Assembly: GCA_963713925.1 (NCBI GenBank)
Contig: OY970212.1
Location: forward strand, 800,001-864,000
Length of the DNA stretch: 64,000 nucleotides
Reading direction: 5' to 3'
From: an uncultured bacterium
GTDB lineage: Bacteria > Babelota > Babeliae > Babelales > Vermiphilaceae
Shown: piece after piece, positions 36,310 to 62,655 of the stretch
How the letters are laid out: each line of letters begins with the position of its first letter
How positions within the stretch are numbered: position 1 is the first letter of the stretch
The notes under the pieces: generated by a model
What the model was told of the DNA's origin: nothing
Database searches by the model: none
The model's input: the letters and a program-made list of their open reading frames with translations, nothing else
Program-made: the position numbers and the translations under genes

Positions 36310-36936
36310 TCATTTTGATTCGATAATGAAAAACCTGTCCATAGTAGATGCAAAATTATTTGTAGCTTCTATCTTTTCAAGATATTCCTGAACATCTTTA
36401 AAAATTACTAAAGGGTAACCTCCTTTTATTAATATTAACTGTAAAAGAATATGTGCAGTTCGACCATTTCCACCTCGAAAAAAATGTAGTACCGTCAATC
36501 GAATATGCGCGAGTACCGCAATTTTAATAACATGCTCATCAGATTTTAAACCCGATATAAAATGATCTATGAATCCATAATCATCTATCATTTTACGAGA
36601 AGGAATACGTATCGGTGGTTTATCACCTTTTAGAATACCGAAACTATCAGACTCAGACCGTAAAACACCGTCACAATCTTCAAGGCTGAGATTAATCTCT
36701 TGAATGTGCTGGAATGTTATCTCTCTTAGAGATAACGACTTGGTCAACTCGCTGATTTTCTGTGTAGCCGCAGAATTGATCATTTTCAATGTGCCATCCG
36801 TCGAAGGATACTGTAATTCACGCACAGAAATTTCGTATTGTGATTTCCGTTTTTTCTCATCAATTTTTTTTAAATTAAAATCGATATCAATCATAGTTTT
36901 CATTGTCCAGTTTTTAAAAATTATTTTGTGCAACAA
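36310..36936 (-). CDS. Fic-domain protein with a degenerate motif
   Basis: HFFRGGNGRTAH versus canonical HPFxDGNGRxxR; start uncertain. Confidence 0.7.
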   Translation of the reverse strand: MLHKIIFKNWTMKTMIDIDFNLKKIDEKKRKSQYEISVRELQYPSTDGTLKMINSAATQKISELTKSLSLREITFQHIQEINLSLEDCDGVLRSESDSFGILKGDKPPIRIPSRKMIDDYGFIDHFISGLKSDEHVIKIAVLAHIRLTVLHFFRGGNGRTAHILLQLILIKGGYPLVIFKDVQEYLEKIEATNNFASTMDRFFIIESK

Positions 36937-37047
36937 AAAAGCCCCGAATTACTCGGAGCCTTTTAATAATTTTAATTAAATCCCTAGCTAAGCAGTGGCG
37001 GCGCTTGAGCCAGGCGAAGCCGAGGCACCCGAAGGATGACTTGGCGA

Positions 37048-37090
37048 GGGTTGGGTCCCAAGTGAAGCAAAGCGAAACTTGGGTAAAAAG
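37048..37090. repeat. Palindromic repeat (GGGTCCCAAGTGAAGCAAAGCGAAACTTGGGTAAAA)
   Basis: Reverse complement matches the 39-bp units at 20715-20831; tail matches 10674-10689. Confidence 0.75.
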
Positions 37091-37202: not shown

Positions 37203-37433
37203 TCAATTTTCTTCATCTCTTAAAGAAGAAAATGTTGTTTCTAAAAAATACCCCTGATAATAACTATGTAGGCGTTCTTTTAAACATTTAAAATGACAAA
37301 AAAAATCTTGTGTAGGCTGATATTTTATCTCTTTGCCATAATTTGCCATGATATTCATGTTACACGGGTCAACATCTGAAGGCTCAATTGCTTGATTGCA
37401 AAAACAACAAGAAAACTTTAGTTCATTTGTCAT
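37203..37433 (-). CDS. Small Cys/His protein (CxxC...HxxC), probable second immunity or accessory gene
   Basis: CCFC...FCHFKC; 3-nt gap after 37437..37874. Confidence 0.6.
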   Translation of the reverse strand: MTNELKFSCCFCNQAIEPSDVDPCNMNIMANYGKEIKYQPTQDFFCHFKCLKERLHSYYQGYFLETTFSSLRDEEN

Positions 37434-37436
37434 CCA

Positions 37437-37874
37437 TTATGCCTCGATTTTCAAATCAATTACCCCGACAGTTATATCATCCCCGGGTAATATCTCTATT
37501 ATATATCCTTCTGATGGGTTGAAAATGAATTTATCAAAGGTGACACTTACAACGTAATCATATTGTTGTATTACATCATATATATTTGTCTTTATAGCAG
37601 GGATTGCAGCTGAACCCCACTCTATAAATACGGACGGATCAAAATCATCACCTAAAAATCTCTTCAATGAATCTATTATCATAGTATAATTTGTGCCCAA
37701 ATTCATTTTATGATTAATTTTGTCCCAATCAATTTTCCCCCATTCTGTCATTGGATACAAATCGGTAAAAAGTTGCAATACCCTATCTGATTCTTGCTCA
37801 GGTAGTAGCTCTATTTTTAAAGCTTCAATACACCTTAGAAATGGTGCATTGCGCGTGTGCCTTGTTTGAGACAT
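37437..37874 (-). CDS. Putative cognate immunity protein (CdiI-like)
   Basis: Starts 1 nt after the toxin stop; small, acidic; YPMTEWGKIDW resembles CdiI-type proteins. Confidence 0.7.
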   Translation of the reverse strand: MSQTRHTRNAPFLRCIEALKIELLPEQESDRVLQLFTDLYPMTEWGKIDWDKINHKMNLGTNYTMIIDSLKRFLGDDFDPSVFIEWGSAAIPAIKTNIYDVIQQYDYVVSVTFDKFIFNPSEGYIIEILPGDDITVGVIDLKIEA

Positions 37875-37875
37875 G

Positions 37876-39915
37876 CTATTCCCTTTTGTTTTTATTTAAA
37901 TTCTCAATGGCATTCAAAATGAGCGATAAATATTTATTATCTGTCTGCATAAAAATCGTCTTAGTCATTTCAAGATTAGCACGAGTATTTAAATGTTTTA
38001 TTAAACTTTGCACCGTTGATTCAGTCCCCTCAAATAGAACAGCGTATACATTTCCTTTTACCCCGTTACCTAATCTATAATCTGTGATGTTTATATGTGG
38101 ACCTTTCCCAGGGGCATAGTCGATTCTAAAAGATACATCTCCATCGTGCCAATCGGTTCCTATAATCTTACCTTTAAGCTTACCGAACTTACCGACGTGT
38201 GGAGTAGCCGTATGCGGATCAACCTTACCGATAAGCTCTAAGGCTTTATTTCTTGCTTGCTCATAAGTTTTCATTCTTGGAATAGATTTTTCACGCTTAG
38301 GTATATTTGTATGTGAATCAATAAAAGGAGTCTTTTCGTTCGACAACTTTCCAGCTTTCAGCAACATTCCCTCAGGAGTTGCTAAAAATAATTCCGGTTC
38401 CGCTTGCGGATATTTTTCGATAAACTCGATTGCTTTCATACGAGCTTTACCATAGATTGAATTCAATCCTTTGAGCATTCGGCCTTGAGCATACCAGCCA
38501 ACAGTGACCTGAGTAGCGAGTTCAGCAGCCTGTGCCGCCGAAATTCCTTTTTCAAATTGTGTCAGAAGTGCATCAACAGGCGCCAAATAGGCATCGAGCT
38601 TTTCATATCCAGCCAGCCGATCGTAATAAGATGTAATCGCAATATCCGCTACTGCATAAGCAAGTTTGCACGCTTGATACGCCAATACATATTGTCCGGC
38701 TACAAGGCAAAGTCCCGTATGCAATGGATGAGTTGCCAAATCATACGCAGCATAATACACACCCAGGCATGCCCCTTTTGCCATTGCATGCCCTATATCA
38801 AGAAGCACGAAACAAAAATCGTTGATTGTTGTCGCTTTGTGCGTCAAACCAATTTGGTTAAACTCACGTGACGCATCAACGCAATCCATAAAATCTTTTC
38901 TGTATATATACAGCGAATCAACTGTTTGCAGTCGTGCTGTTCGATCTAAAACATCAATACATTCTTGATGCACCGCTTGCTGGAGTTGGTTGCCATAATG
39001 AGTCGTGAATTGGTTCTGATTATAATTGCATTCGCCGATCAGGCCGATGGAAGGTGCTTCAAGTGTATATTCCAATTGCTTATACTCGGCGCCCGAATTT
39101 TGTGTAGCATTAAGAGCAGCCATTCGCTTCCCAAAATGCTCATTTGATAGTCCATAATGACGGGCAATATCTGATGAATTATTCCACAATAGTGCATCAT
39201 TAGTAATCTGATTCAGACTATTGTAAAAAGTGTTTCTGAGCTTTTCTCGTTCTTCTTCAAGCTTTTTCCGAGCGGCTTCTTCACGCTCTTTTCGCGCTTG
39301 TTCTTCCTTGATTTCTCGATCTCTTTTCTCATGAAACAAGCGTCTGCTTTCTATTTTATCGCACTCTTGTGCTATTGCGTTATGCGCATTCGTCGTTACG
39401 CGTTTTTCGATTTCTTTATTGGAATGTATTAGCTCGTGAAGTGCCTTGACCTTGCTTTCATATCCGGAAAACTGACTAACAGTATCCCGAAATGCTTCAT
39501 ATTCGTACAAATTGATTTGATTGAGTATGTTTTCTTGGTCTTTAAAGCTGATATAAAAATACTTGCTTTCCGTATTGACAAAAAAAGTATATCCACGCTC
39601 AAATGCCCAAAAAACATCAATAGGAAAAGAAGATATTTGGCAACGTAATCGAGCTATTGCGGTATAATAATCTTTTCTGCTCCAATATTTGCATTCATGT
39701 TGTCTTTCAAAAAGAGCCTTATCATGCTCCGCCAACCCAAGCCAATTTCTTTTATTCGACCCAATCCCAAATTGGCTATAAATATCATTGGCGTGTTGAT
39801 TATCGTAACGAGATTTTTCCGGTTTCTCGGGAACAGGTGGTATTTCGGGATTATCGGGATTGTATGAAAAGATGGAACTATAAAAGAATATCGAAAAGAG
39901 AAATGTTATAAACAT
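37876..39915 (-). CDS. Signal-peptide polymorphic toxin with CdiA-CT-like C-terminal nuclease domain
   Basis: C-terminal YEQARNKAL...RIDYAPGKGPHINITDY...FEG; N-terminal signal; central coiled coil and hydrophobic helices. Confidence 0.75.
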   Translation of the reverse strand: MFITFLFSIFFYSSIFSYNPDNPEIPPVPEKPEKSRYDNQHANDIYSQFGIGSNKRNWLGLAEHDKALFERQHECKYWSRKDYYTAIARLRCQISSFPIDVFWAFERGYTFFVNTESKYFYISFKDQENILNQINLYEYEAFRDTVSQFSGYESKVKALHELIHSNKEIEKRVTTNAHNAIAQECDKIESRRLFHEKRDREIKEEQARKEREEAARKKLEEEREKLRNTFYNSLNQITNDALLWNNSSDIARHYGLSNEHFGKRMAALNATQNSGAEYKQLEYTLEAPSIGLIGECNYNQNQFTTHYGNQLQQAVHQECIDVLDRTARLQTVDSLYIYRKDFMDCVDASREFNQIGLTHKATTINDFCFVLLDIGHAMAKGACLGVYYAAYDLATHPLHTGLCLVAGQYVLAYQACKLAYAVADIAITSYYDRLAGYEKLDAYLAPVDALLTQFEKGISAAQAAELATQVTVGWYAQGRMLKGLNSIYGKARMKAIEFIEKYPQAEPELFLATPEGMLLKAGKLSNEKTPFIDSHTNIPKREKSIPRMKTYEQARNKALELIGKVDPHTATPHVGKFGKLKGKIIGTDWHDGDVSFRIDYAPGKGPHINITDYRLGNGVKGNVYAVLFEGTESTVQSLIKHLNTRANLEMTKTIFMQTDNKYLSLILNAIENLNKNKRE

Positions 39916-40073: not shown

Positions 40074-40148
40074 TGGCTGGGGTGGAAGGATTCGAACCTC
40101 CGGATGCCGGTACCAAAAACCGGTGCCTTACCACTTGGCGACACCCCA
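40074..40148 (-). tRNA. tRNA-Gln (anticodon TTG)
   Basis: TGGGGTG acceptor, CCGGT/ACCGG anticodon stem with loop TTTTGGT, GGTTCGAATCC T-arm, encoded CCA. Confidence 0.97.
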
Positions 40149-52401: not shown

Positions 52402-54351
52402 ATGTTACACAAGTTTGTGAAAGCAATGAGCCTTGCAGCTCTCTGCGCTTGCTTGTTCAACACCAATGCGCACGTTGTTCAGCGTTCGCAAACGGTTGAT
52501 GCCGCACGTAATTTAGTCGGCTGGGAACATGAAATTAACCGCTTTGATGTTGGTGATTCTTATGGTGCTTTTGCCATTACTCCGGAATACACTCAATCAT
52601 TCAACCGTAAAAAAATAGGCCGGGGTATCTTTGGTTCAGCATTCATTTCAAATGATTGCTCAAAAAAGTGTGAATCTGAGTGTGGGACCGTTTCTATACA
52701 GGGTTCAACTGTTCCAAACCGCTCAAGCACTGCTTTACTTGCTGATTACTTTGGCTTGGCTCCTGATTTTGATGGCACGGTTACTGTATGCCCAAAAATT
52801 CAAAACTTCCTTATTGATTTCAACCTCTTTTTAGGGCTTGATAACTGGCTTTGTGGTGCTTGGTTCCGCGTGCAAGCTCCCTTAGTATATGCAAAATGGA
52901 AACTTGATTTCTGCGAAGCGGGAATAGGAACCGATGGATATCCGGCAGGCTATTTTGGGCCGACAGCAGTTGCTAACTCATCGCTCAATCAGTCTTTCTC
53001 CTCATATTTACAAGGCGGAGTACCCAATCTTGGCAGTGTAGTCACCTTTAACCCATTAACAAACAGTAGACTTTGCAGATCTAATTCAAACGGAAACAAT
53101 GGTTCATGTGGAACGAACGGCTCATGTGGCACTTCATGTTTTAATAAAAATGGTGATTGCAAAGATACCTTCCGTCTTTCAGACATTGAATTCGCTCTTG
53201 GCTGGAACTTCTGGCAAGATGAAGATTATCATGTCGGTCTTGGCGTAGTACTTCGTGCTCCGACCGGAAATCGTATTAACGAAACATTCTTGTTCCAACC
53301 AATTGTTGGTAACGGACATCATTGGGAACTTGGTGGCTTGCTTACCACACACTGGACATTCTGGAATGGATGTGATGGTAATCAAAGCTTAGGTATTTAT
53401 GTTGACGCATGGATCACTCACTTATTTAAAGCGAGCCAATGTCGTAGTTTTGACCTCTGCTGCAGAGGGCCATTAAGCCGCTACATGCTTGCAGAAGAAA
53501 TGACCACGAATGTTGTTGATAGCCTTGCCGGAGGAGCAACGACCACTACGCTCACTTCTTCAACCTATCAATTCAATAATATTCTCTCACCAATTGCAAA
53601 CTTCACCTTCCAAAAAGTTGATGTGAGCATTCCGGTGCAAGCAGACGTTGTAGCACTATTGAATTACACTCACTGCGACTTCTCATGGGATATCGGATAC
53701 AACTTCTGGGGCACTTCATGCGAAAAAATCTGCCCATGCAAAAATGTATTTAACAATAACTTAGTTGCACTTAAAGGCGATGCTTCCGTGTATGGATTTG
53801 AACCTGTTGCGGGATCTCCTGCTACCTTTTTCCCTGTTCCATTGGGAGCAACGGAAACAGGCGATTGCTCTGCTCCGCAAGCTACCATCTTTGCCGGAAC
53901 GAACAATGGCAGTGTGGTAAATGCGGGAATTGAGAATGCACAATTGGCCTGGTCGGGTGTTACTGAATTACTGAACACTCCATCATTAGTCACAGGTCTA
54001 CAAACTCACACCTCTATCCAGCCCCAACTGCTTACCAACAACGATGTTGATTATGCCGGTGCTCGTCGCAAGGGCTTAACCCACAAAGTATTTACCAACT
54101 TTAGCTACAGCTGGGAAGATTGTGAATGCTATGTTCCATTCTTGGGAATCGGCGGATTTGCTGAATTTGCGCAAGGTGGAAATGGTTGCTGTGATAATGA
54201 TTGTGAATCATCATGCAATCCATGCATTGTAACATCCCCAAGCTGTGTTCCTGCCTGCAGCAGAAATAATACCTGCGATTTGGGCATTGCTTGCTCAAAC
54301 GGAGCATTCTCACAATGGGGTATCTGGCTTAAGGGTGGATTTGCATTCTAA
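52402..54351 (+). CDS. Cys-rich exported putative outer-membrane protein, paralogue 3
   Basis: Same motifs; ends QWGIWLKGGFAF. Confidence 0.85.
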   Translation: MLHKFVKAMSLAALCACLFNTNAHVVQRSQTVDAARNLVGWEHEINRFDVGDSYGAFAITPEYTQSFNRKKIGRGIFGSAFISNDCSKKCESECGTVSIQGSTVPNRSSTALLADYFGLAPDFDGTVTVCPKIQNFLIDFNLFLGLDNWLCGAWFRVQAPLVYAKWKLDFCEAGIGTDGYPAGYFGPTAVANSSLNQSFSSYLQGGVPNLGSVVTFNPLTNSRLCRSNSNGNNGSCGTNGSCGTSCFNKNGDCKDTFRLSDIEFALGWNFWQDEDYHVGLGVVLRAPTGNRINETFLFQPIVGNGHHWELGGLLTTHWTFWNGCDGNQSLGIYVDAWITHLFKASQCRSFDLCCRGPLSRYMLAEEMTTNVVDSLAGGATTTTLTSSTYQFNNILSPIANFTFQKVDVSIPVQADVVALLNYTHCDFSWDIGYNFWGTSCEKICPCKNVFNNNLVALKGDASVYGFEPVAGSPATFFPVPLGATETGDCSAPQATIFAGTNNGSVVNAGIENAQLAWSGVTELLNTPSLVTGLQTHTSIQPQLLTNNDVDYAGARRKGLTHKVFTNFSYSWEDCECYVPFLGIGGFAEFAQGGNGCCDNDCESSCNPCIVTSPSCVPACSRNNTCDLGIACSNGAFSQWGIWLKGGFAF

Positions 54352-54402
54352 AATAAAGACTTGCAGTCGTTATTTTAGAAAAAATTCGAACTTAACAAAA
54401 TC

Positions 54403-54440
54403 AAAAGGGACTCGAAGAAATTCGAGTCCCTTCTTTTTTT
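54403..54440 (+). terminator. Terminator after paralogue 3
   Basis: AAGGGACTCGAA-GAAA-TTCGAGTCCCTT-CTTTTTT. Confidence 0.85.
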
Positions 54441-54541
54441 AAACTCTTGTGCATTATTTAATACTCTAGCTACAGTTATGCAAAGATAGTATGAACATAC
54501 CCCACATTACACATGGGGGCCCCATATGAAAGGAAATAGCC

Positions 54542-56578
54542 ATGATGCAGCTTGCATACCGCACCTTTAAAAAACTTGTTCTTGTCGGTGCTTTTTGCAT
54601 GACGAGCATAAGTTTTGCTCACATTTTAATGCGTTCACAAAGTGTCGATTCCGCACGTGAGCTTGCTGGTTGGGCACATAAGGTGAATCTTTTTGCCGCT
54701 GATGCATGCGACTGGTATGGCACCTTTGCCGTCACTGCAGAATACGCACAATCATTCAACTCAAAGAAAATCGCGCGCTGTCTTTTTGGGGATAGTTTAA
54801 TAAACAGCTCATGCAGCAATGATTTTTCTTGTGCGCAAGTGAATGTTTCAGGAAGCCGCGTTGCCAACAGAGGAAACAAAGATCTGCTGGCCGATTATTT
54901 CGGATTACCTACCGACTTTCAAAGCGCATTCTCAATCAAACCGACGGTACGAAGCTTTATTGTTGATTTTGATTTTTACTTTGGGCTCGACCGCTGGATG
55001 TCCGGCTCATGGTTCAGAATTCATGCGCCAATCGTATACACTGATTGGAAATTGAATTTACATGAATCAGTCTTGAATGAAGGCGTCAACCCTTATGTTG
55101 AAGGCTATTTCTCACCTGTTGCAGTTGCGCGAGGTAATTTAAACACAAGCTTCTCCAGTTATTTAGCGGGAGCAGCTCCAACATTAACGGGCAATGGAAC
55201 ATTTGATCCAATATTTCTACCACTCGAGCACATGCGTGTTCCGGAAGGCACCGTAACAAACGGACTCAACCATGTTCCTGGGTCGTGTAATGGAAAAGGT
55301 TTACATACAACGAAACTTTCCGATATCCAAGCCGTGCTTGGCTGGAACTTTTGGCAAAATGAAGATTATCATGTTGGAGTAGGGGCTCGCATTTCCATTC
55401 CAACCGGCACACAAATTAAGGATTTTTTCCTTTTCCAGCCAATCGTGGGTAACGGACACCATTTTGAAGCTGGTGGTATGTTCACCTCACACTACACATT
55501 CTGGCGCAGCTGCGATGAAGATAGAAGCATGGGTATCTATGTTGACGCGAACATAACACATCTTTTTGACACAAAACAATGTCGTTCATTTGATCTTTGC
55601 GGACATGGCGACAACAGCCGTTATATGTTGGCAATGCAATTAAACTCTCCGTATCGAGACGCCAATGGTGCCTTTGCCGGATATGCGCTCACCGGAAATC
55701 CTGAAGGAGCGACACCTCCTGCATATATTGCTCCGGCTACTGGTTACACCCGGGCTCAAGCCGCATTTGACGGCATCTTTGCGCCCGTTGCAAATATTGC
55801 CTTCGGCGCTGTGAATGTCAATATTCCGGTGCAGGCAGATGTAACGGTGATGTTTAATTATAAGCAATGTGGCTTTGAATTTGATCTTGGTTACAACCTC
55901 TGGGCGACAACCTGCGAACAAATAAACTTCATCGACAATTGCCCGATCATCTGTCCACAAACATGGGCTCTCAAAGGCGATGCGCATGTGTATGGATTTG
56001 ATGTTTCAGCTTCTCCGGTGGTTGCGGGTGCCGTTCCATTATCAGCAACAGAAAGCGAAGCAACTATTTTCTCGGGTACCAATTATGTTGCCGGAAACAC
56101 CATTGCTCAAGCACAGACCAATATCGGCATCGATCATCCCCAATTTGCCTATGGAGACAGCACCAATATCAACAGTACTTTAATCCCAGGACGCGCCCTG
56201 TTTGCCACAAGCGCAAACCCACAACCAGCAATCTTGGCACAGACAAACACCTCAATCCAACCGATATTTCTTTCCGACTGCGATCTTGACATTGCCGGCG
56301 CACGAGCACGTGGACTTACCAACAAAATTTTCACCCATATAAGCTATACATGGGAAGATTGTTGTCTATCACCCTATTTTGGGATTGGTGGAAAAGCTGA
56401 GTTTGCGCAAAACAATGCAAACAAGTGTGGAAATGGCTGCAACGTCGTTTCAAATGAATCAATCTGCGATCAAGTGAACACCTGTTTTGCTGGATGTAAT
56501 GATGATTGTGGCGCATCCTGTGCGCGATGCAATCTCTCGGAATGGGGTATTTGGTTAAAGGGAGGAATTTCTTTTTAA
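54542..56578 (+). CDS. Cys-rich exported putative outer-membrane protein, paralogue 4
   Basis: Same motifs; ends EWGIWLKGGISF. Confidence 0.85.
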   Translation: MMQLAYRTFKKLVLVGAFCMTSISFAHILMRSQSVDSARELAGWAHKVNLFAADACDWYGTFAVTAEYAQSFNSKKIARCLFGDSLINSSCSNDFSCAQVNVSGSRVANRGNKDLLADYFGLPTDFQSAFSIKPTVRSFIVDFDFYFGLDRWMSGSWFRIHAPIVYTDWKLNLHESVLNEGVNPYVEGYFSPVAVARGNLNTSFSSYLAGAAPTLTGNGTFDPIFLPLEHMRVPEGTVTNGLNHVPGSCNGKGLHTTKLSDIQAVLGWNFWQNEDYHVGVGARISIPTGTQIKDFFLFQPIVGNGHHFEAGGMFTSHYTFWRSCDEDRSMGIYVDANITHLFDTKQCRSFDLCGHGDNSRYMLAMQLNSPYRDANGAFAGYALTGNPEGATPPAYIAPATGYTRAQAAFDGIFAPVANIAFGAVNVNIPVQADVTVMFNYKQCGFEFDLGYNLWATTCEQINFIDNCPIICPQTWALKGDAHVYGFDVSASPVVAGAVPLSATESEATIFSGTNYVAGNTIAQAQTNIGIDHPQFAYGDSTNINSTLIPGRALFATSANPQPAILAQTNTSIQPIFLSDCDLDIAGARARGLTNKIFTHISYTWEDCCLSPYFGIGGKAEFAQNNANKCGNGCNVVSNESICDQVNTCFAGCNDDCGASCARCNLSEWGIWLKGGISF

Positions 56579-56617
56579 ATCGCAATGCGATTTAAAAGAT
56601 ATAATCGGAATTTTATT

Positions 56618-56648
56618 AAGAGGGCTTGCATTGCGAGCCCTCTCTTTT
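56618..56648. terminator. Terminator between paralogue 4 and the convergent gene
   Basis: AGAGGGCTTGCA-TTGCGAGCCCTCT-CTTTT. Confidence 0.75.
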
Positions 56649-57516
56649 AATTCAGTGCGTATGTCTCTAACGATCCTTGCAGCCAGAGCAATCCGCCCAC
56701 TTGCTTGCCCGGAACGAGTTTTATTTTGAGGTTCGTTGAAGCGATAAATGTATCGATGCTGAATTCAGGAGTAAGTGAAATCGTTACGATGAACCCTGCT
56801 ATCGGACCAAGCTTATATTCGTGAACATCCAAAATTTTTCCGATAAAGTTAATCTCATCCGGTTCATCTGCAGGGAAATATCCACAAAAATCTTTGCCAA
56901 ATGATGGCCGCATCTTTTTACCGCCCAAATCAATTTCAGGGGATTGTACTTTGGCATTTATTTCTTCCGCATCAAAATCTTGCAAGGTGTATGCAAAGCC
57001 AACAATGTTGACGAAAATGTTTTCCTCTTTCTTATATCTTTTTTTGTTTTGGGCATAATCGGTTGCAAAAAAGCTCAGTGCGCAACCGCTCTCATGAACA
57101 ACATTCACCACAGCTTCTTTTTTATCCGTGTGTGACCATTGCGTAATAAGCTTTGTTTTCATTTTTTCTACCGAATCATTCTTCCAATAGGGAAATGCCG
57201 GAACAACCTTTTTGCCCGATATAATGGCACGTATAAAAGATCCCTCAACCAAGAATGTGTGATAATCGACTTGTATTTGTTTGCCTGCTTTTAAGTCTTC
57301 ATTTATAAGAGCAGTTCTTTCTTTTTGTGGCATCTCCCGTGAAAACACAACAAGCCAATGTTTCATGTGTGAGCCTTTGTCTGTGCTGACTCTTTTAACT
57401 CTACTTGATGGAAACCAGCCGCGTTCTTCATAAAATTTATAAAATCCGTATAAAACGGCACAGATGACAACCGGCCCAAAAAGAAGGTCTTTAAAATCCT
57501 CAAAACTCACGCTCAC
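56647..57516 (-). CDS. Hypothetical membrane-anchored protein
   Basis: AGGAG RBS, GTG start, N-terminal TM, C-terminal GLLWLQG. Confidence 0.7.
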   Translation of the reverse strand: MSVSFEDFKDLLFGPVVICAVLYGFYKFYEERGWFPSSRVKRVSTDKGSHMKHWLVVFSREMPQKERTALINEDLKAGKQIQVDYHTFLVEGSFIRAIISGKKVVPAFPYWKNDSVEKMKTKLITQWSHTDKKEAVVNVVHESGCALSFFATDYAQNKKRYKKEENIFVNIVGFAYTLQDFDAEEINAKVQSPEIDLGGKKMRPSFGKDFCGYFPADEPDEINFIGKILDVHEYKLGPIAGFIVTISLTPEFSIDTFIASTNLKIKLVPGKQVGGLLWLQGSLETYALN

Positions 57517-57603
57517 TCCTTACAAATACATGATCTGTTACATAAAAGTGATGACAGATTACCATGATGTGCTTGTAAGTCGAGGATTTTGATTATTTCG
57601 CGA

Positions 57604-58008
57604 TTAGCCTAAGGCATCCGCCATCGTTATCGTAAATGTACCTGTATCATCTTGTACGATTGTTACGTATCTCGGTCTTTTTTCACAAACAATCTTCCAT
57701 TGCTTCAACAAGTCGACCAATTGCCCGATAGAGCATTCCATTCCTCCATCATATGGATCATCCATATGCTTACGCCCCATTATTATCCGATTTCCCAGCT
57801 TCTCAAGAATCGTGTAATTGCTCCGCATGGTATGAATTTCGGGATTGAGAAGACTCGAAATGGCATTATCAGGAGATAACCCCCAATCATCATTCAGAAA
57901 AAAATAGACTAAATTCAATCCAGCGTCTCCTGAATCCTTAGAATCGTAGCCTAATACTGATTGTTTTAAATATAAAATTTTCATTGCAAATTCCCGACTC
58001 AAATCCAT
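57604..58008 (-). CDS. Small hypothetical protein (immunity-like size and composition)
   Basis: Clean ORF; start may be 57984. Confidence 0.6.
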   Translation of the reverse strand: MDLSREFAMKILYLKQSVLGYDSKDSGDAGLNLVYFFLNDDWGLSPDNAISSLLNPEIHTMRSNYTILEKLGNRIIMGRKHMDDPYDGGMECSIGQLVDLLKQWKIVCEKRPRYVTIVQDDTGTFTITMADALG

Positions 58009-58184
58009 TAAAAAAAAGAATTGTCGAGATAAAGATGAGTCGCATGCTTTCTCCTTGTATGTATTTATTGCCCAAAATATAACTCGGTTTGAATGAAATG
58101 TCTTTTTCTTGAAACACCGAAATTGAAGTTGTTAGAGTAAACATCGTGCGATCTTAAAATCGCTTTTTTCAGTGAGGGTAAGTT

Positions 58185-60122
58185 ATGATGATGAAAAAAA
58201 TAAAAATAAGCCTTTTTCTTATAAGTTCTTGCATGTTCACGCAGGCATATAGCTCATTGGCCCATCGCTCTCAGACGGTTGATCTCGCGCGTTATATGGT
58301 TGGCTGGGCAAATCAGGTCTATCTTCCTGATGCCGACTATTTTAATTTCAGCTTCGCCGTTATCCCGCAATTTCGACAAACCGTTAGTGAACATCGCGTC
58401 GCGCGCACCCTATTTGGAGACGATTGTCTTACACAGCAGTGCTGTCCGACAATCACGATTTCCGGAAGCACTGTTTCCGGACGTAATGCAACCGATTGGC
58501 TCGCTGATTATTTTGGACTTCCAACCGATTATCAAAGTACGGTAAAGTTTAAGCCGAACATCGATGAATTTATTTTTGATATGTCACTTTATATCGGACT
58601 CGATAGAATTTTATCCGGATTATTTGTGCGCTTACAATCGCCGCTCGTTGCACAACGAACGAAGTTGCATGCTTCTGAAACTATTATAAATTCGGGCGCT
58701 CTACGCTCCAACACGAGCCCAAGCTTATGCCCGCAGTATCCCGCCGGATATTTTGCTCCCGAAGCCGTCGATTGCTTCTACTTAAATAAAACATTCACGC
58801 GATATATTGGCCTTCATCAAGCACCACTGCTCTCGCTTGACGGAGTTCCCGTGTTTGAACCACTCGTCTACGGCAAATGGGGGGTTCCTTGCTTTGAAAA
58901 ACTTGAACGAACTGATTTTAGTGATTTAGAAATCATTCCCGGATGGAATTTTTTACTCTCCGATCATTATCATTTAGGCCTCGGCGCAGTAATTCGAGCA
59001 CCAATTGGCAATAGTTTGACGGGAGAATTCTTGTTTGAAAATGTTGTCGGAAACGGAAGACACTGGGAACTAGGAGGGTTGCTGACAGGTTCATGGAGAT
59101 TCTGGAACGATGACGAACGTGAACGCACCGTTATGTTGTGGGTCGAAGCAACCATCACTCATCTATTTGCTGCGCATCAATGTCGCGTATTTGGTCTCAA
59201 GAATCACGGTTGTTCAAGCCAATACATGCTCGCTCAGCTCATGGAACCAACCACTAATGAATTTTTATTTGCCAACGGTTCAAACACGCCGGGCGGTCCC
59301 ACGATTGCAACCGTACAACCAAATTTTCAAACCGGTGGGCTATTTACCGCCGTTGCTAATTTAACTCGCACGAAAGTGTGCGTTCGCAATGATTTGCAAG
59401 CAGATGTTGCAGCAATGATGTCATTCATCCAAGGCGGCTTTGAATTTGATTGGGGATACGAATTTTGGTGTAAAACGAAAGAAAAATTGTGCGTACAATC
59501 ACAAGCATTTACCACGAAGCAGTGGGCATTAAAAGGTGATGCATTTGTGTATGGATTTGGCGCAACTGATGCAGTGACTGGCGCCAATGCAATTATTCCG
59601 CTTTCGGCAACACAAAGCACTGCCACGATTCACGCAGGCAACAACCGACCAATCGGCGCACCGGTCATCACCTCTGGAACAAACAACCAACAAACAAATC
59701 CGGGCATTGACAATCCGGAATTTGGAGTCACCTCAACAATCATTGCTAACACAACTGATCGCATTGTTTATCAACCGGGGCTCACTGCAACCGATCTCAA
59801 CCAACAAAGAACTTCTTTACAACCCGTTCTTTTGAGCAACGATGATGTTGATTACAGTGGCATTCCGGGAGTTTGCTCGCACAAAGTGTTCGCCAATATT
59901 AGTTATGCACTTGATATGGAATGTGTGCAACCCTATGTTGGCATCGGCGGGTATTATGAATTTGGGCGCAATTTAAAAGAAAAATCAAAAGAAGCCTGTT
60001 TGGAATGTTGCTCACCGGTACTTACCTGTTCGCCGAATATTTTTCAAAACGAGCGCACAAATAAACGCGTAGATGCACTGTCGGCATGGAGCTTGTGGTT
60101 GAAGGCTGGAATTTCATATTAA
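58185..60122 (+). CDS. Cys-rich exported putative outer-membrane protein, paralogue 5 (most divergent)
   Basis: HRSQTVD, LADYFGLP, GNGRHWELGG, WALKGDA; ends AWSLWLKAGISY. Confidence 0.85.
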   Translation: MMMKKIKISLFLISSCMFTQAYSSLAHRSQTVDLARYMVGWANQVYLPDADYFNFSFAVIPQFRQTVSEHRVARTLFGDDCLTQQCCPTITISGSTVSGRNATDWLADYFGLPTDYQSTVKFKPNIDEFIFDMSLYIGLDRILSGLFVRLQSPLVAQRTKLHASETIINSGALRSNTSPSLCPQYPAGYFAPEAVDCFYLNKTFTRYIGLHQAPLLSLDGVPVFEPLVYGKWGVPCFEKLERTDFSDLEIIPGWNFLLSDHYHLGLGAVIRAPIGNSLTGEFLFENVVGNGRHWELGGLLTGSWRFWNDDERERTVMLWVEATITHLFAAHQCRVFGLKNHGCSSQYMLAQLMEPTTNEFLFANGSNTPGGPTIATVQPNFQTGGLFTAVANLTRTKVCVRNDLQADVAAMMSFIQGGFEFDWGYEFWCKTKEKLCVQSQAFTTKQWALKGDAFVYGFGATDAVTGANAIIPLSATQSTATIHAGNNRPIGAPVITSGTNNQQTNPGIDNPEFGVTSTIIANTTDRIVYQPGLTATDLNQQRTSLQPVLLSNDDVDYSGIPGVCSHKVFANISYALDMECVQPYVGIGGYYEFGRNLKEKSKEACLECCSPVLTCSPNIFQNERTNKRVDALSAWSLWLKAGISY

Positions 60123-60178: not shown

Positions 60179-60970
60179 TTAAGCAATACGCTCAATCACT
60201 AATTGGGCTGTTGATATCGGAGATTTATAAAAAAGCAACCCCGGATCCAAGAAAAAAGTAGTTTGCAATTCAATGGATAGCTTATCTCCTGCATTGATCG
60301 CAACTATACATGTCCCAAATGAATTGCTTGGCAATCTCGGAAAAAGGTTGTCATTTAGAACAACAGTGTTATTGACCTGAGTTATTGGCGTACCGTTAAT
60401 TGCTAATATACTACTAAGAATATCTGATGCAGCTGGAATCGAACTACCAGTGAAGGACGTACCAGATACACTCCATGATACAAAGTAAATTCCCGTCTCC
60501 GGACAAATAAGATTACCGTTAGAACCAGATTCAATAACCCAATTTGAAGAGGCATCAAATGGAACAAAGGCTATATCACCGGAGGTCAATGAATAAGCAT
60601 AATTGTCATCTTCTGCAGTTACATCTACACCTGTCGGCCCCGTTAAACCAATTGATCCCGTCGCTCCCTGCGCACCTCTCGCTCCCATTGCTCCGATTGA
60701 TCCATTAGCGCCAGTACTACCCTGCGCACACGGATTTAATCCTGAGTTCGGGGCATCAATAATGTCGCATACTTTCAAATCTCCATGAATGGTTACATTC
60801 CCGGAGACAAGCAATGATGGAGTTTTCAATGATTGTGTAACATATAAGTGTGATATGATTTGAACCGGATCAATTGATTTTTTTTGATTCTCTGAATCAT
60901 CTGCCTGCATGTATACAGAGATAGTCGTCACTAAAAATAATTGCACTACATTTCGTCTTGACATACTCAT
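60179..60970 (-). CDS. Collagen-like protein with BclA/C1q-like C-terminal domain
   Basis: Signal peptide, Gly-X-Y run (GSTGANGSIGAMGARGAQGATG...), TGIYFVSW, ends LVIERIA. Confidence 0.8.
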   Translation of the reverse strand: MSMSRRNVVQLFLVTTISVYMQADDSENQKKSIDPVQIISHLYVTQSLKTPSLLVSGNVTIHGDLKVCDIIDAPNSGLNPCAQGSTGANGSIGAMGARGAQGATGSIGLTGPTGVDVTAEDDNYAYSLTSGDIAFVPFDASSNWVIESGSNGNLICPETGIYFVSWSVSGTSFTGSSIPAASDILSSILAINGTPITQVNNTVVLNDNLFPRLPSNSFGTCIVAINAGDKLSIELQTTFFLDPGLLFYKSPISTAQLVIERIA

Positions 60971-60984
60971 TCCTTTAATTAAAA

Positions 60985-61836
60985 TTATGTGATTTGTTTA
61001 ATCACAAATCCTAAGCAAGTCGCGGAGGCCGCTGCGGGGGGGACAGGAAGTCTATCAACAGCAAATTCAAAAATAAGCGGTTCATTTGCCGTATAAAAAA
61101 TAATAGCTGTCCCTGTTGAAAGACCAATGTTTGCATCTGTTCCATTTCCAGTTACTTGTAATGATGTTGCACTCCCTGGAACCTCGACACCACTCAGCGT
61201 AATTCTGAAGGTACAAATAATAGGATTAGCATCACTACTATCAAGAGTCATAATCCATGAAACCGCATAAACACCCGAGCGAGGCGAAGTAAAAATGCCT
61301 GTCGTAGTATCCAAAGTCCAATCATTTAAAATGGATGGTGTTGTTGTGGGCGAAGGGTAGGAAAATGCATTAAATACAAGTGGCACTGATAGCGTTATTG
61401 AATTACTCGATTGGATGTAAGCATAGCTATCCAAGCCATTAAAAGGCGCCCCGCTCGCTCCATTTGATCCAGTCATACCAACAGACCCAGTTCCTCCCAT
61501 TGCCCCGGTAACTCCTGACGCTCCAGTCATTCCTGCTGAACAATTACAAGTATTTGACAAAATGAAGGTGCCATTGATATTTCCACATACTTTTAAATTA
61601 CCACATACTGTCGCATTTTTTAGAACGAGCAACGAATTTGCACGAAGAGATTGTTTTACCAATAAGTGAGCTATTGTCGAATAGTATATCTTTTTTGATG
61701 AATCAACTTTTTTGTCAGTCGAAGCGCTATAACGAAATTGTGAAAATATGCAGATTAATAATATCTTGAAACAAACAGATTGAAAACACTTCATAATTTT
61801 TATCCAGTTACTCTTAATTTTGGAATATTTTTGCAT
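60985..61836 (-). CDS. Collagen-like protein with BclA/C1q-like C-terminal domain
   Basis: GMTGASGVTGAMGGTG..., SGVYAVSW; start may be 61794. Confidence 0.8.
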   Translation of the reverse strand: MQKYSKIKSNWIKIMKCFQSVCFKILLICIFSQFRYSASTDKKVDSSKKIYYSTIAHLLVKQSLRANSLLVLKNATVCGNLKVCGNINGTFILSNTCNCSAGMTGASGVTGAMGGTGSVGMTGSNGASGAPFNGLDSYAYIQSSNSITLSVPLVFNAFSYPSPTTTPSILNDWTLDTTTGIFTSPRSGVYAVSWIMTLDSSDANPIICTFRITLSGVEVPGSATSLQVTGNGTDANIGLSTGTAIIFYTANEPLIFEFAVDRLPVPPAAASATCLGFVIKQIT

Positions 61837-62655
61837 TTAAGCAACACGTTCGATGGTAAGTTGAACTGACGCATTCGTAACACCTATACCAATGGCACTT
61901 AATAAGGTGTTCGCACCGCTCGATGTCCATTGAAAAACCAATGGCTCACCTGCTGTATAATTAATCAACGATACGGAATATACCTGATAAGGAGTGTTTG
62001 GATCAAGAGTTGAATTGACCATGCCGTTATTTCCTATAACAGAGCCATTAAGTAATAATTGGCTACTGATCACAAGTACTGTGCCACTCACACTTACCAT
62101 ACCCAATAATGCGAAGGTCACTAAATATGTCCCCGATTGGGAGTTGGAAAATGCTCCAGTGATATTATTATAGGTCCATCCATTAAGAATTGGCGTATTG
62201 CTAAACAAAATCGTTTGGTAGGAGTTTGGAGTTATTATTGGATCACTTCCGGTGTGATAGGCAAAAGCATAATTTGCACTGCTCAGATCCTGAGCATTCG
62301 GACCGGTTGCTCCCGTTGCACCCGTTGCTCCCGCTATGCCGATCGCACCAGTTAATCCCGCTGGACCTGTTGGTCCGGTCGCTCCGGTTGCGCATACAGT
62401 TCTACTTAATTGACCATAAATATTTCCGCATACTGTCAAATCACCACAGATGGTAACATTCCCTCCCACAAGCAACGATGCGGTACGAAATGAATTGGTG
62501 ACAAATAGATTGCGGATCACTTCACTATCCTTTCCACGCATAGAACTATGAGCATCATCACTTTGAACTGTGATAACAGTATCTCCAAGATCAATGGCAT
62601 GAAGATATTCAAGGAAGGCTAACAACAAAAAAAATCGATATGACATACGCTTCAT
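61837..62655 (-). CDS. Collagen-like protein with BclA/C1q-like C-terminal domain
   Basis: GATGPTGPAGLTGAIGIAGATGATGATGP, SGTYLVTF, ends ASVQLTIERVA. Confidence 0.85.
   Translation of the reverse strand: MKRMSYRFFLLLAFLEYLHAIDLGDTVITVQSDDAHSSMRGKDSEVIRNLFVTNSFRTASLLVGGNVTICGDLTVCGNIYGQLSRTVCATGATGPTGPAGLTGAIGIAGATGATGATGPNAQDLSSANYAFAYHTGSDPIITPNSYQTILFSNTPILNGWTYNNITGAFSNSQSGTYLVTFALLGMVSVSGTVLVISSQLLLNGSVIGNNGMVNSTLDPNTPYQVYSVSLINYTAGEPLVFQWTSSGANTLLSAIGIGVTNASVQLTIERVA

Follow-up and report, generated by a model that had tools for sequence, protein, structure and literature searches.

A locus on the reverse strand of a Babelota genome encodes a polymorphic toxin whose family joins a conserved carrier, at a TPEG motif, to exchangeable C-terminal tips. 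The locus lies in a window of 64,000 nt from an uncultured Vermiphilaceae bacterium (GenBank assembly GCA_963713925.1, contig OY970212.1, positions 800,001 to 864,000); coordinates given below are positions within this window, and residue numbers are those of the 679-aa toxin, P0001. The genome containing the window is a single contig of 1,318,721 bp with a completeness of 95.75%. Babelota (Dependentiae/TM6) are widespread, barely cultured protist parasites with genomes of 1-1.5 Mb. ORF calls confirmed the three open reading frames (ORFs) described in a first-pass annotation made from the sequence alone, with their positions, their sizes and the gaps of 1 nt (toxin to 145-aa ORF) and 3 nt (145-aa to 76-aa ORF) between them.

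Searches with a profile of the carrier core revealed nine paralogs in the genome (all at E<=5e-48; next match 0.005), whose tips are of the Ntox17 (two copies), Ntox21, EndoU and 5T86 types, with four lacking a Pfam name. Compared with the closest paralog, P0005, residues 361-520 are 77-82% identical and those from 521 on 5-17%, with a drop from 82% to 10% just past TPEG; DNA homology stops at the TPEGMLLK codons. The reverse pattern is seen in the metagenomic proteins P0008 and P0013, with 20-55% identity in the carrier and 52-60% in the tip. Of the 168 members scored, 128 carry T[PAS][ED]G at the boundary. Invariant C-termini, which the first-pass annotation had named as an argument against its toxin reading, are not what the homologues carry: BLAST sorted 177 tips of at least 60 aa, from 198 distinct members, into 33 classes (11 singletons, a few looking truncated), and different tip classes are borne by 32 of the 45 carrier pairs that are at least 70% identical. 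A recognised C-terminal family, always RNase-type, was found in 36 of 137 scanned members (122 of 143 new library matches, 21 short ones being omitted, plus 15 genome ORFs), comprising EndoU, Ntox17, Ntox21, Ntox35, Cytotoxic, Ribonuclease and DUF4258, with five matches below the curated cut-off. Precomputed annotations of family members add PF11429 and PF18451, which we take to be colicin D and CdiA_C. The tip type found at this locus is also attached to unrelated carriers, including CdiA, Bacillus LXG, PT-TG and S-layer proteins and a HINT-type Babelota carrier. Among individual loci, G013:C1:1006-1017 kb (L039) contains a tandem series of four toxin-immunity pairs, all full-length, whose carriers are nearly identical and whose tips fall into three classes. 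The closest paralog (L031:5060-9483; G000 ~604-608 kb) has a tRNA cluster on one side and, on the other, a serine recombinase accompanied by more mobile-element-like genes, and the Ntox17 pair (L032) adjoins a DUF5906/primase-like gene.

The tip and its partner bear out the likeness to CdiA-CT/CdiI pairs that the first-pass annotation had proposed. Residues 547-643 match the CdiA toxin in PDB 5T86_A (E 2.5e-16), with R-x-D and H aligned, and the 145-aa protein scores 85 bits with PF24172, whose cut-off is 33. The local residue set is R597, D599, H607 and N609, and among 23 Babelota tips R597 is conserved in 20, D599 in 22 and H607 in 22; RNase activity of the tip is likely. The earlier term "tRNase" is not established, since 5T86 reportedly lacks a published mechanism and SRLase1, a toxin of the R-x-D...H-x-N pattern (R70/D72/H97/N99), cleaves 23S rRNA with EF-Tu (10.64898/2026.09.18.752725); the substrate of the tip may be tRNA or rRNA. 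Nor is the tip specific to gammaproteobacteria: its best plasmid matches come from Bacillus, an LXG toxin at 47% among them. According to one report, 5T86 is treated as a BECR-fold protein with no mechanistic publication, and Salmonella Rhs2, structurally closest to 5T86, requires D192 and H204 for toxicity (10.64898/2026.05.10.723254). Another report classes DUF4258 among colicin-like BECR proteins (10.64898/2026.08.28.747851); its main text mentions neither 5T86 nor Babelota, and its supplements may name the tip family.

Regarding immunity, a small same-strand gene starts no more than 40 nt past the toxin stop codon in 56 of 58 loci. Loci with the same tip share the downstream gene family in 120 of 139 pairs, those with different tips in 0 of 1,401, counts whose significance is overstated because related loci are not independent. 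A PF24172 gene lies 3' of the 5T86-type tip in 3 of 3 loci, and a 5T86-type tip adjoins 19 of the 30 PF24172 loci fetched from the phylum. A phmmer search of the 145-aa protein against PDB gave 0 matches at E<=1. When residues 535-679 were modelled in complex with the 145-aa protein, the score was 0.87, with 0.00 for the best of three controls, and the mark applied was reached by 51 of 78 solved pairs and 2 of 108 mismatched pairs. The runs agree on at least 78% of contacts, the partner has a pLDDT of at least 89, and the interface includes residues 597, 599-601 and 609. Because 5T86 has been solved and the pass may reflect memory, this result indicates likeness, not binding. The 145-aa protein likely blocks the tip in the producer. 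Tandem immunity arrays of up to five paralogs lie 3' of other toxin copies. Two genomes, G058 and G070, contain 11 and 6 PF24172 matches, respectively, many of them tandem or double-domain, which represent large immunity expansions.

The third ORF of the locus (ORF3), previously counted among the immunity genes of this tip, is better read as immunity against another tip class. In 4 of 4 loci that have a DUF4258-like tip, the gene immediately downstream belongs to its family, which also lies 3' of such a tip in 9 of 14 other loci fetched, with no tip nearby in 4. As the family follows DUF4258-like tips and none of these was found in the genome at E<=1e-3, ORF3 is an orphan immunity candidate, and roles as a second cognate immunity gene or an accessory factor were rejected in favour of this reading. 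ORF3 may be a relic of an earlier tip: the near relative P0006 has a 58% identical carrier and a DUF4258-like tip, and a 79% identical ORF3 homologue stems from a contig of equal length. Alternatively, it may be a travelling cassette, the same order of tip, CdiI and ORF3 being present in another genus on a distant carrier (L090). Elsewhere in the window (57604-58008, -), a standalone homologue of the gene family 3' of EndoU tips, with no tip detected nearby, constitutes a further orphan immunity candidate.

A search with the core profile retrieved 1,202 protein clusters (50% identity), 912 of them at E<=1e-10. Across the phylum, the profile is matched in 135 of 261 genomes, including 99 of the 189 of high quality, and the matches extend over 85 of 145 genera and 17 of 21 families; one genome gave 15 matches with a single-protein query. 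The lineage-specific scaffold envisaged at first corresponds to an unannotated carrier found across one phylum. All seven family members with an organism name are designated "Candidatus Babeliales bacterium"; one of them, P0016, agrees in length, match coordinates and C-terminus with the ORF in G034, a genome placed in the same family as the present one, which is on these grounds assigned to Babeliales. Restriction to Babelota is likely from the best 150 library matches inspected. A full-text literature search covering few subscription papers retrieved no paper linking a polymorphic toxin with Babelota, Dependentiae or TM6, and the papers pairing Babeliales or Babeliae with a toxin were microbiome surveys, judged by their listings; a broader search named neither Babeliae nor Dependentiae among its top 30 of 448 papers. 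A term search of PMC12172432 gave no mention of toxin, and PMC12700104 deals with a different family.

The carrier shows no relationship to a named family in the databases searched. The 679-aa protein matches no Pfam family at E<=0.1, in line with the absence of FHA, RHS, LXG and VENN motifs reported at the outset for its N-terminal 500 aa. The ~300-aa core has no match in Pfam, NCBIfam or PHROG; a Pfam scan of 54 cores at E<=0.05 gave no recurring match, NCBIfam (35 proteins) and PHROGs (6 proteins) gave no relevant family, and phage and plasmid records gave no match to the core. The AlphaFold model of residues 18-530 has a mean pLDDT of 79, and the core-only model has a pTM of 0.75. Foldseek with residues 18-530 returned 0 matches at E<=0.001 in PDB and BFVD. 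Several weak candidates were tried and rejected. VIA-align found a designed bundle as the best match to residues 18-530 (Z 6.6, rmsd 3.3, 106 aligned), and the core alone gave 0 Foldseek matches and a best Z of 7.2 (rmsd 3.2, 106 aligned); these are common helical arrangements and speak for neither a known fold nor a novel one. Among PDB sequences, the core profile matched designed helices best (E 0.007) and colicin A at E 1.0, and uS11 matches to P0001 (E>=0.04) were dismissed as coiled-coil noise.

The coiled coil noticed initially appears in the AlphaFold model as a charged helix of ~58 residues (about 175-232). It is followed by a confidently modelled helical bundle (~233-378, pLDDT 86-99), which holds the conserved residues R264, G308-N-x-L-Q-x-x-x-H316-x-E318, N353 and D366-F-C368, and, after a Gly/Ala-rich hairpin, by amphipathic helices ending at TPEG. 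The bundle can be regarded as a module, since eight long members have two copies of it, the N-terminal one lacking the hairpin; a ninth two-part match is an internal duplication. Residues 18-117 would be a candidate target-recognition part, and the hairpin (379-430) a candidate membrane-insertion element. At the N-terminus, the best 12-residue Kyte-Doolittle window has a hydropathy of 2.16, and values of at least 1.8 are found in 146 of the 173 family members whose N-terminus is plausibly complete, versus 4 of 56 downstream genes; a Sec signal peptide is likely, and it would presumably be cleaved. The carrier dN/dS values against the closest paralog are 0.34, 0.14 and 0.09 across three segments, with purifying selection increasing toward the boundary, implying that the toxin locus is not a product of chance. 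The features of the locus are listed in Table 1.

Table 1. Coordinates of the toxin locus and the parts of its product (positions in the window).
Feature	Position	Strand	Basis
Polymorphic toxin gene, full length, 679 aa (P0001)	37876..39915	-	ORF call
Residues 1-17, hydrophobic N-terminus without lipobox Cys, likely a Sec signal peptide	39865..39915	-	Sequence, hydropathy
Variable N-terminal region, residues 18-117, Pro-rich start, low-medium model confidence	39565..39864	-	Model, alignment
Helical region, long charged helix/coiled coil, residues 118-232	39220..39564	-	Model blocks pLDDT 89-98
Signature helical-bundle domain, residues 233-378	38782..39219	-	Conservation, model
Gly/Ala-rich helical hairpin, residues 379-430, G381xxxG385, H396-P397	38626..38781	-	Hydropathy, model (low confidence)
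Carrier/tip boundary, residues 505-521; TPEG at 38368-38379	38353..38403	-	Protein and DNA homology to closest paralog stops
Toxin tip, residues 542-643, CdiA-CT 5T86 homologue, predicted BECR/BECR-like RNase	37987..38292	-	Sequence match, conserved residues
Cognate immunity candidate, 145 aa, PF24172 CdiI_ImmP	37437..37874	-	Pfam match, pairing, complex model
Orphan immunity candidate ORF3, 76 aa, CxxC...C-H-x-x-C	37203..37433	-	Family normally 3' of DUF4258-like tips
tRNA-Gln(TTG) gene, directly 5' of toxin	40074..40148	-	Rfam

We consider antibacterial, probably kin-directed toxin delivery the likely function of this family. In the proposed mechanism, the N-terminal peptide would direct Sec export of the toxin, which would leave the cell via a type II secretion channel or outer-membrane vesicles. 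The N-terminal and helical-bundle regions would bind the target cell, the Gly-rich hairpin would insert into its membrane, and the tip would be released near TPEG. RNA cleavage by R597/D599/H607, with tRNA or rRNA as the substrate, would then stop translation. The main targets would be other Babelota or other bacteria in the same protist cell or food vacuole, and the adjacent CdiI-type protein would shield the producer. Toxicity, substrate, export route and target cell are what we infer. A bolder version, in which the carrier is a self-sufficient translocation device with a helical-bundle domain of its own, by which about half of Babelota kill co-infecting relatives in a shared protist cell, is offered tentatively, being somewhat doubtful.

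The genome encodes SecA and two secretins, which agrees with the type II secretion reported for the phylum (PMC4378268, PMC4776705). [quoted passage not shown] No secretion-partner gene lies between tRNA-Gln and the toxin gene, and a conserved upstream partner was rejected, as 52 upstream genes fell into 50 clusters. Since Chromulinavorax apparently sheds outer-membrane vesicles in the food vacuole (PMC6561590) and MafB has been detected in vesicles (PMC4436062), vesicles are a plausible export route.

Several points weigh against antibacterial delivery as outlined above. The secreted protein would have to cross the two membranes of a rival inside a host, a step for which the scheme offers no explanation. 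The signal peptide annotated at first stands as a hydrophobic N-terminus shared family-wide, but it lacks a basic n-region and its cleavage is conjectural. Likewise, the annotated hydrophobic helices are recognisable as stretches peaking at residues 368-386 and 410-428, but they are only marginally hydrophobic (19-residue peaks of 1.45 and 1.27), and the hairpin is modelled poorly (pLDDT 37-50); for these reasons the role of the hairpin is a guess. Besides the non-independence of the pairing counts, tip replacement could have left the orphan immunity genes behind as relics, in which case they would not be maintained defences. Standalone toxin cassettes are scarce in the genome: a single Ntox17 fragment, plus one or two short tip ORFs whose carrier is unclear. 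In addition, the host and lifestyle of the source genome are assumed from other Babeliales, the cultured examples of which are intracellular protist parasites or symbionts (PMC6561590).

The family could instead consist of host-directed effectors that carry a nuclease into the protist cytosol or mitochondrion, shutting down or lysing the host, with the immunity protein serving only to protect the producer during synthesis. The Babelota isolated so far live as obligate intracellular pathogens of protists and have many proteins with signal peptides, and Chromulinavorax is wrapped by the host mitochondrion while the host nucleus degrades late (PMC6561590, PMC4378268); the nine parallel copies look like simultaneous deployment, and in Amoebophilus APD1/2, as a precedent, a conserved N-terminus is combined with variable tips directed at the host (PMC3482391). 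This alternative is nevertheless unlikely, though less so with mitochondria as the target. No ubiquitin-system, GTPase or other eukaryote-specific domain was found in the 137 scanned members, and orphan immunity genes and arrays pay only if the toxins of relatives reach the Babelota cytoplasm, both of which argue for a bacterial target; furthermore, tips that turn over rapidly and have matching immunity are a typical sign of kin conflict (PMC4436062). As for the precedent itself, APD1/APD2, from an amoeba endosymbiont, and Microscilla-N share with the Babelota toxin a signal peptide (likely in the latter), a lineage-specific N-terminal domain and polymorphic C-termini (PMC3482391). In contrast, APD proteins have a lipobox and host-directed ubiquitin-system domains, whereas the Babelota toxin belongs to a family whose recognised tips are RNase-type, has immunity genes and contains no Cys among its first 70 residues, hence no APD-type lipobox. 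The Babelota carrier also spans 17 of 21 families of its phylum and not a single species; APD and Microscilla-N were compared by their descriptions.

The closest parallel in organisation is MafB/MafI of Neisseria (MafB-N, PF06255/DUF1020), which likewise combines a signal peptide (a likely one in the Babelota toxin), a lineage-restricted N-terminal region, a short boundary motif, variable RNase tips (Ntox17, EndoU, Ntox35, Ntox21), a downstream immunity gene and an optional HINT domain (PMC3482391, PMC4436062). The overlap in architecture and in tips (Ntox17, EndoU, Ntox35), together with language-model neighbours of the core that include PT-TG (0.87) and MafB (0.86) clusters (0.89 and 0.87 for P0014), would fit a carrier that is a remote homologue of MafB-N or PT-TG, i.e., a diverged MafB-like family. 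All these Atlas scores are below 0.9, a range that shuffled proteins often reach, and PF06255 and PF14449 are unmatched in 54 cores (E<=0.05) and nine loci (E<=1). The Babelota loci also lack a conserved upstream MafA-like lipoprotein gene, as the upstream clusters indicate, and such homology is decidedly unlikely. Moreover, Babelota copies are dispersed and full-length, with immunity arrays, in contrast to the MafB islands of orphan tips; HINT, if present (3 of 137), is near the N-terminus, not before the tip; and the producer belongs to an intracellular protist-parasite lineage. TPEG-family members with a PT-HINT domain near the N-terminus, not just before the tip, are P0057, P0133 and L060:2025-4595.

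Other known systems share single parts with this locus. CdiA-CT/CdiI of E. coli (5T86) has a homologous tip and an immunity gene of the same Pfam family, PF24172; unlike contact-dependent inhibition systems, the Babelota locus has no cdiB, its protein lacks TPS, FHA and VENN and has 679 aa versus several thousand, and its tip bears a ~35-aa C-terminal extension. Rhs2/SciX and SRLase1/SRLi1 are BECR-like RNase toxins whose kinship with the local tip rests on the residue pattern and the 5T86 link; both toxins are T6SS-delivered, and the D-to-H spacing is 8 here, 12 in Rhs2 and 25 in SRLase1. Lineage-specific Sec/type II-secreted polymorphic toxins (MafB-N, Microscilla-N, APD1/2) were predicted to be more widespread by Zhang et al. 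(PMC3482391). The Babelota system works like MafB with a carrier of its own, and fails the tested features of MafB, CDI, Rhs/T6SS, LXG and APD.

Two further explanations are very improbable. Host addiction, meaning that both toxin and antidote work inside the protist and that a host losing the bacterium dies, has been proposed for the polymorphic toxin loci of Ca. Bodocaedibacter, a Bodo saltans symbiont (PMC8163844), but it does not need tip diversity, and export of the antidote to the host is unlikely with hydrophobic N-termini in so few cognate downstream genes (4 of 56) and none here (hydropathy 1.09). A decaying relic or cytoplasmic toxin-antitoxin pair without delivery would suit the Fic-domain gene downstream and the low GC of the tip (36%), the 145-aa immunity gene (35%) and ORF3 (30%) relative to the genome (41%), which is typical of recent acquisition; against it stand the intact frame, purifying selection, conserved catalytic residues and the hydrophobic N-terminus kept family-wide.

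With up to 15 carrier matches per genome and presence in about half of the phylum genomes (135 of 261), the family would imply strong continuing conflict among protist-dwelling bacteria, and it gives a testable handle on a little-known part of Babelota biology. It also supplies a delivery domain of ~300 aa that lacks annotation, a clean recombination boundary at which tips can be harvested, and 33 catalogued tip classes paired with immunity families, most of them having no Pfam name. If the carrier is indeed self-sufficient, reduced-genome intracellular parasites without type VI, type IV or type III secretion systems would practise toxin-based superinfection exclusion, and two dozen or more unannotated tip classes with their immunity families would be new toxins.

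The toxin gene is flanked upstream by tRNA-Gln and spoVG and downstream by a short palindromic repeat and the Fic-domain gene. An Rfam scan gave the tRNA as the sole match at the locus, and a repeat search gave nothing informative. A tRNA-island origin was rejected: no copy of the tRNA-Gln or tRNA-Asp 3' end was found down to 12 nt and a tRNA is present at only 2 of 43 other loci, and therefore there is no general tRNA-island link. DNA sequencing reads from small shares of three runs gave short scattered contigs only, none spanning the carrier/tip junction. The Fic-domain gene (PF02661, 35 bits; 36310-36936, -) adjoins the 3' side of the toxin locus, is low in GC and has the variant motif HFFRGGNGRTAH. 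Of the palindromic repeat element (36979-37090), a ~38-nt part has about 18 more genome copies, several next to tRNA genes; a stretch of 80 nt has a 91% match immediately 5' of the closest paralog.

A second Babelota toxin carrier occurs at G000:C1:4568-6172, 37366-39213, 74358-76001 and 555946-557718 and at L112 and L088. Its layout comprises a hydrophobic N-terminus, a HINT-like domain (by eye), a hydrophobic segment, a variable linker and TPEG-family tips, and two copies are 87% identical over 402 aa with different tips. An ORF at G000:C1:545732-547324, possibly a third carrier or a very diverged member, places a restriction-endonuclease-like class 13 tip on an Ala-rich region barely matching the core profile (E 0.47). 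Within the window, 52402-60122 (+) and 60179-62655 (-) hold three paralogs rich in Cys, each of ~650 aa with a hydrophobic N-terminus and, in the manner of outer-membrane proteins, aromatic residues at the C-terminus, and then three collagen-like-repeat proteins.

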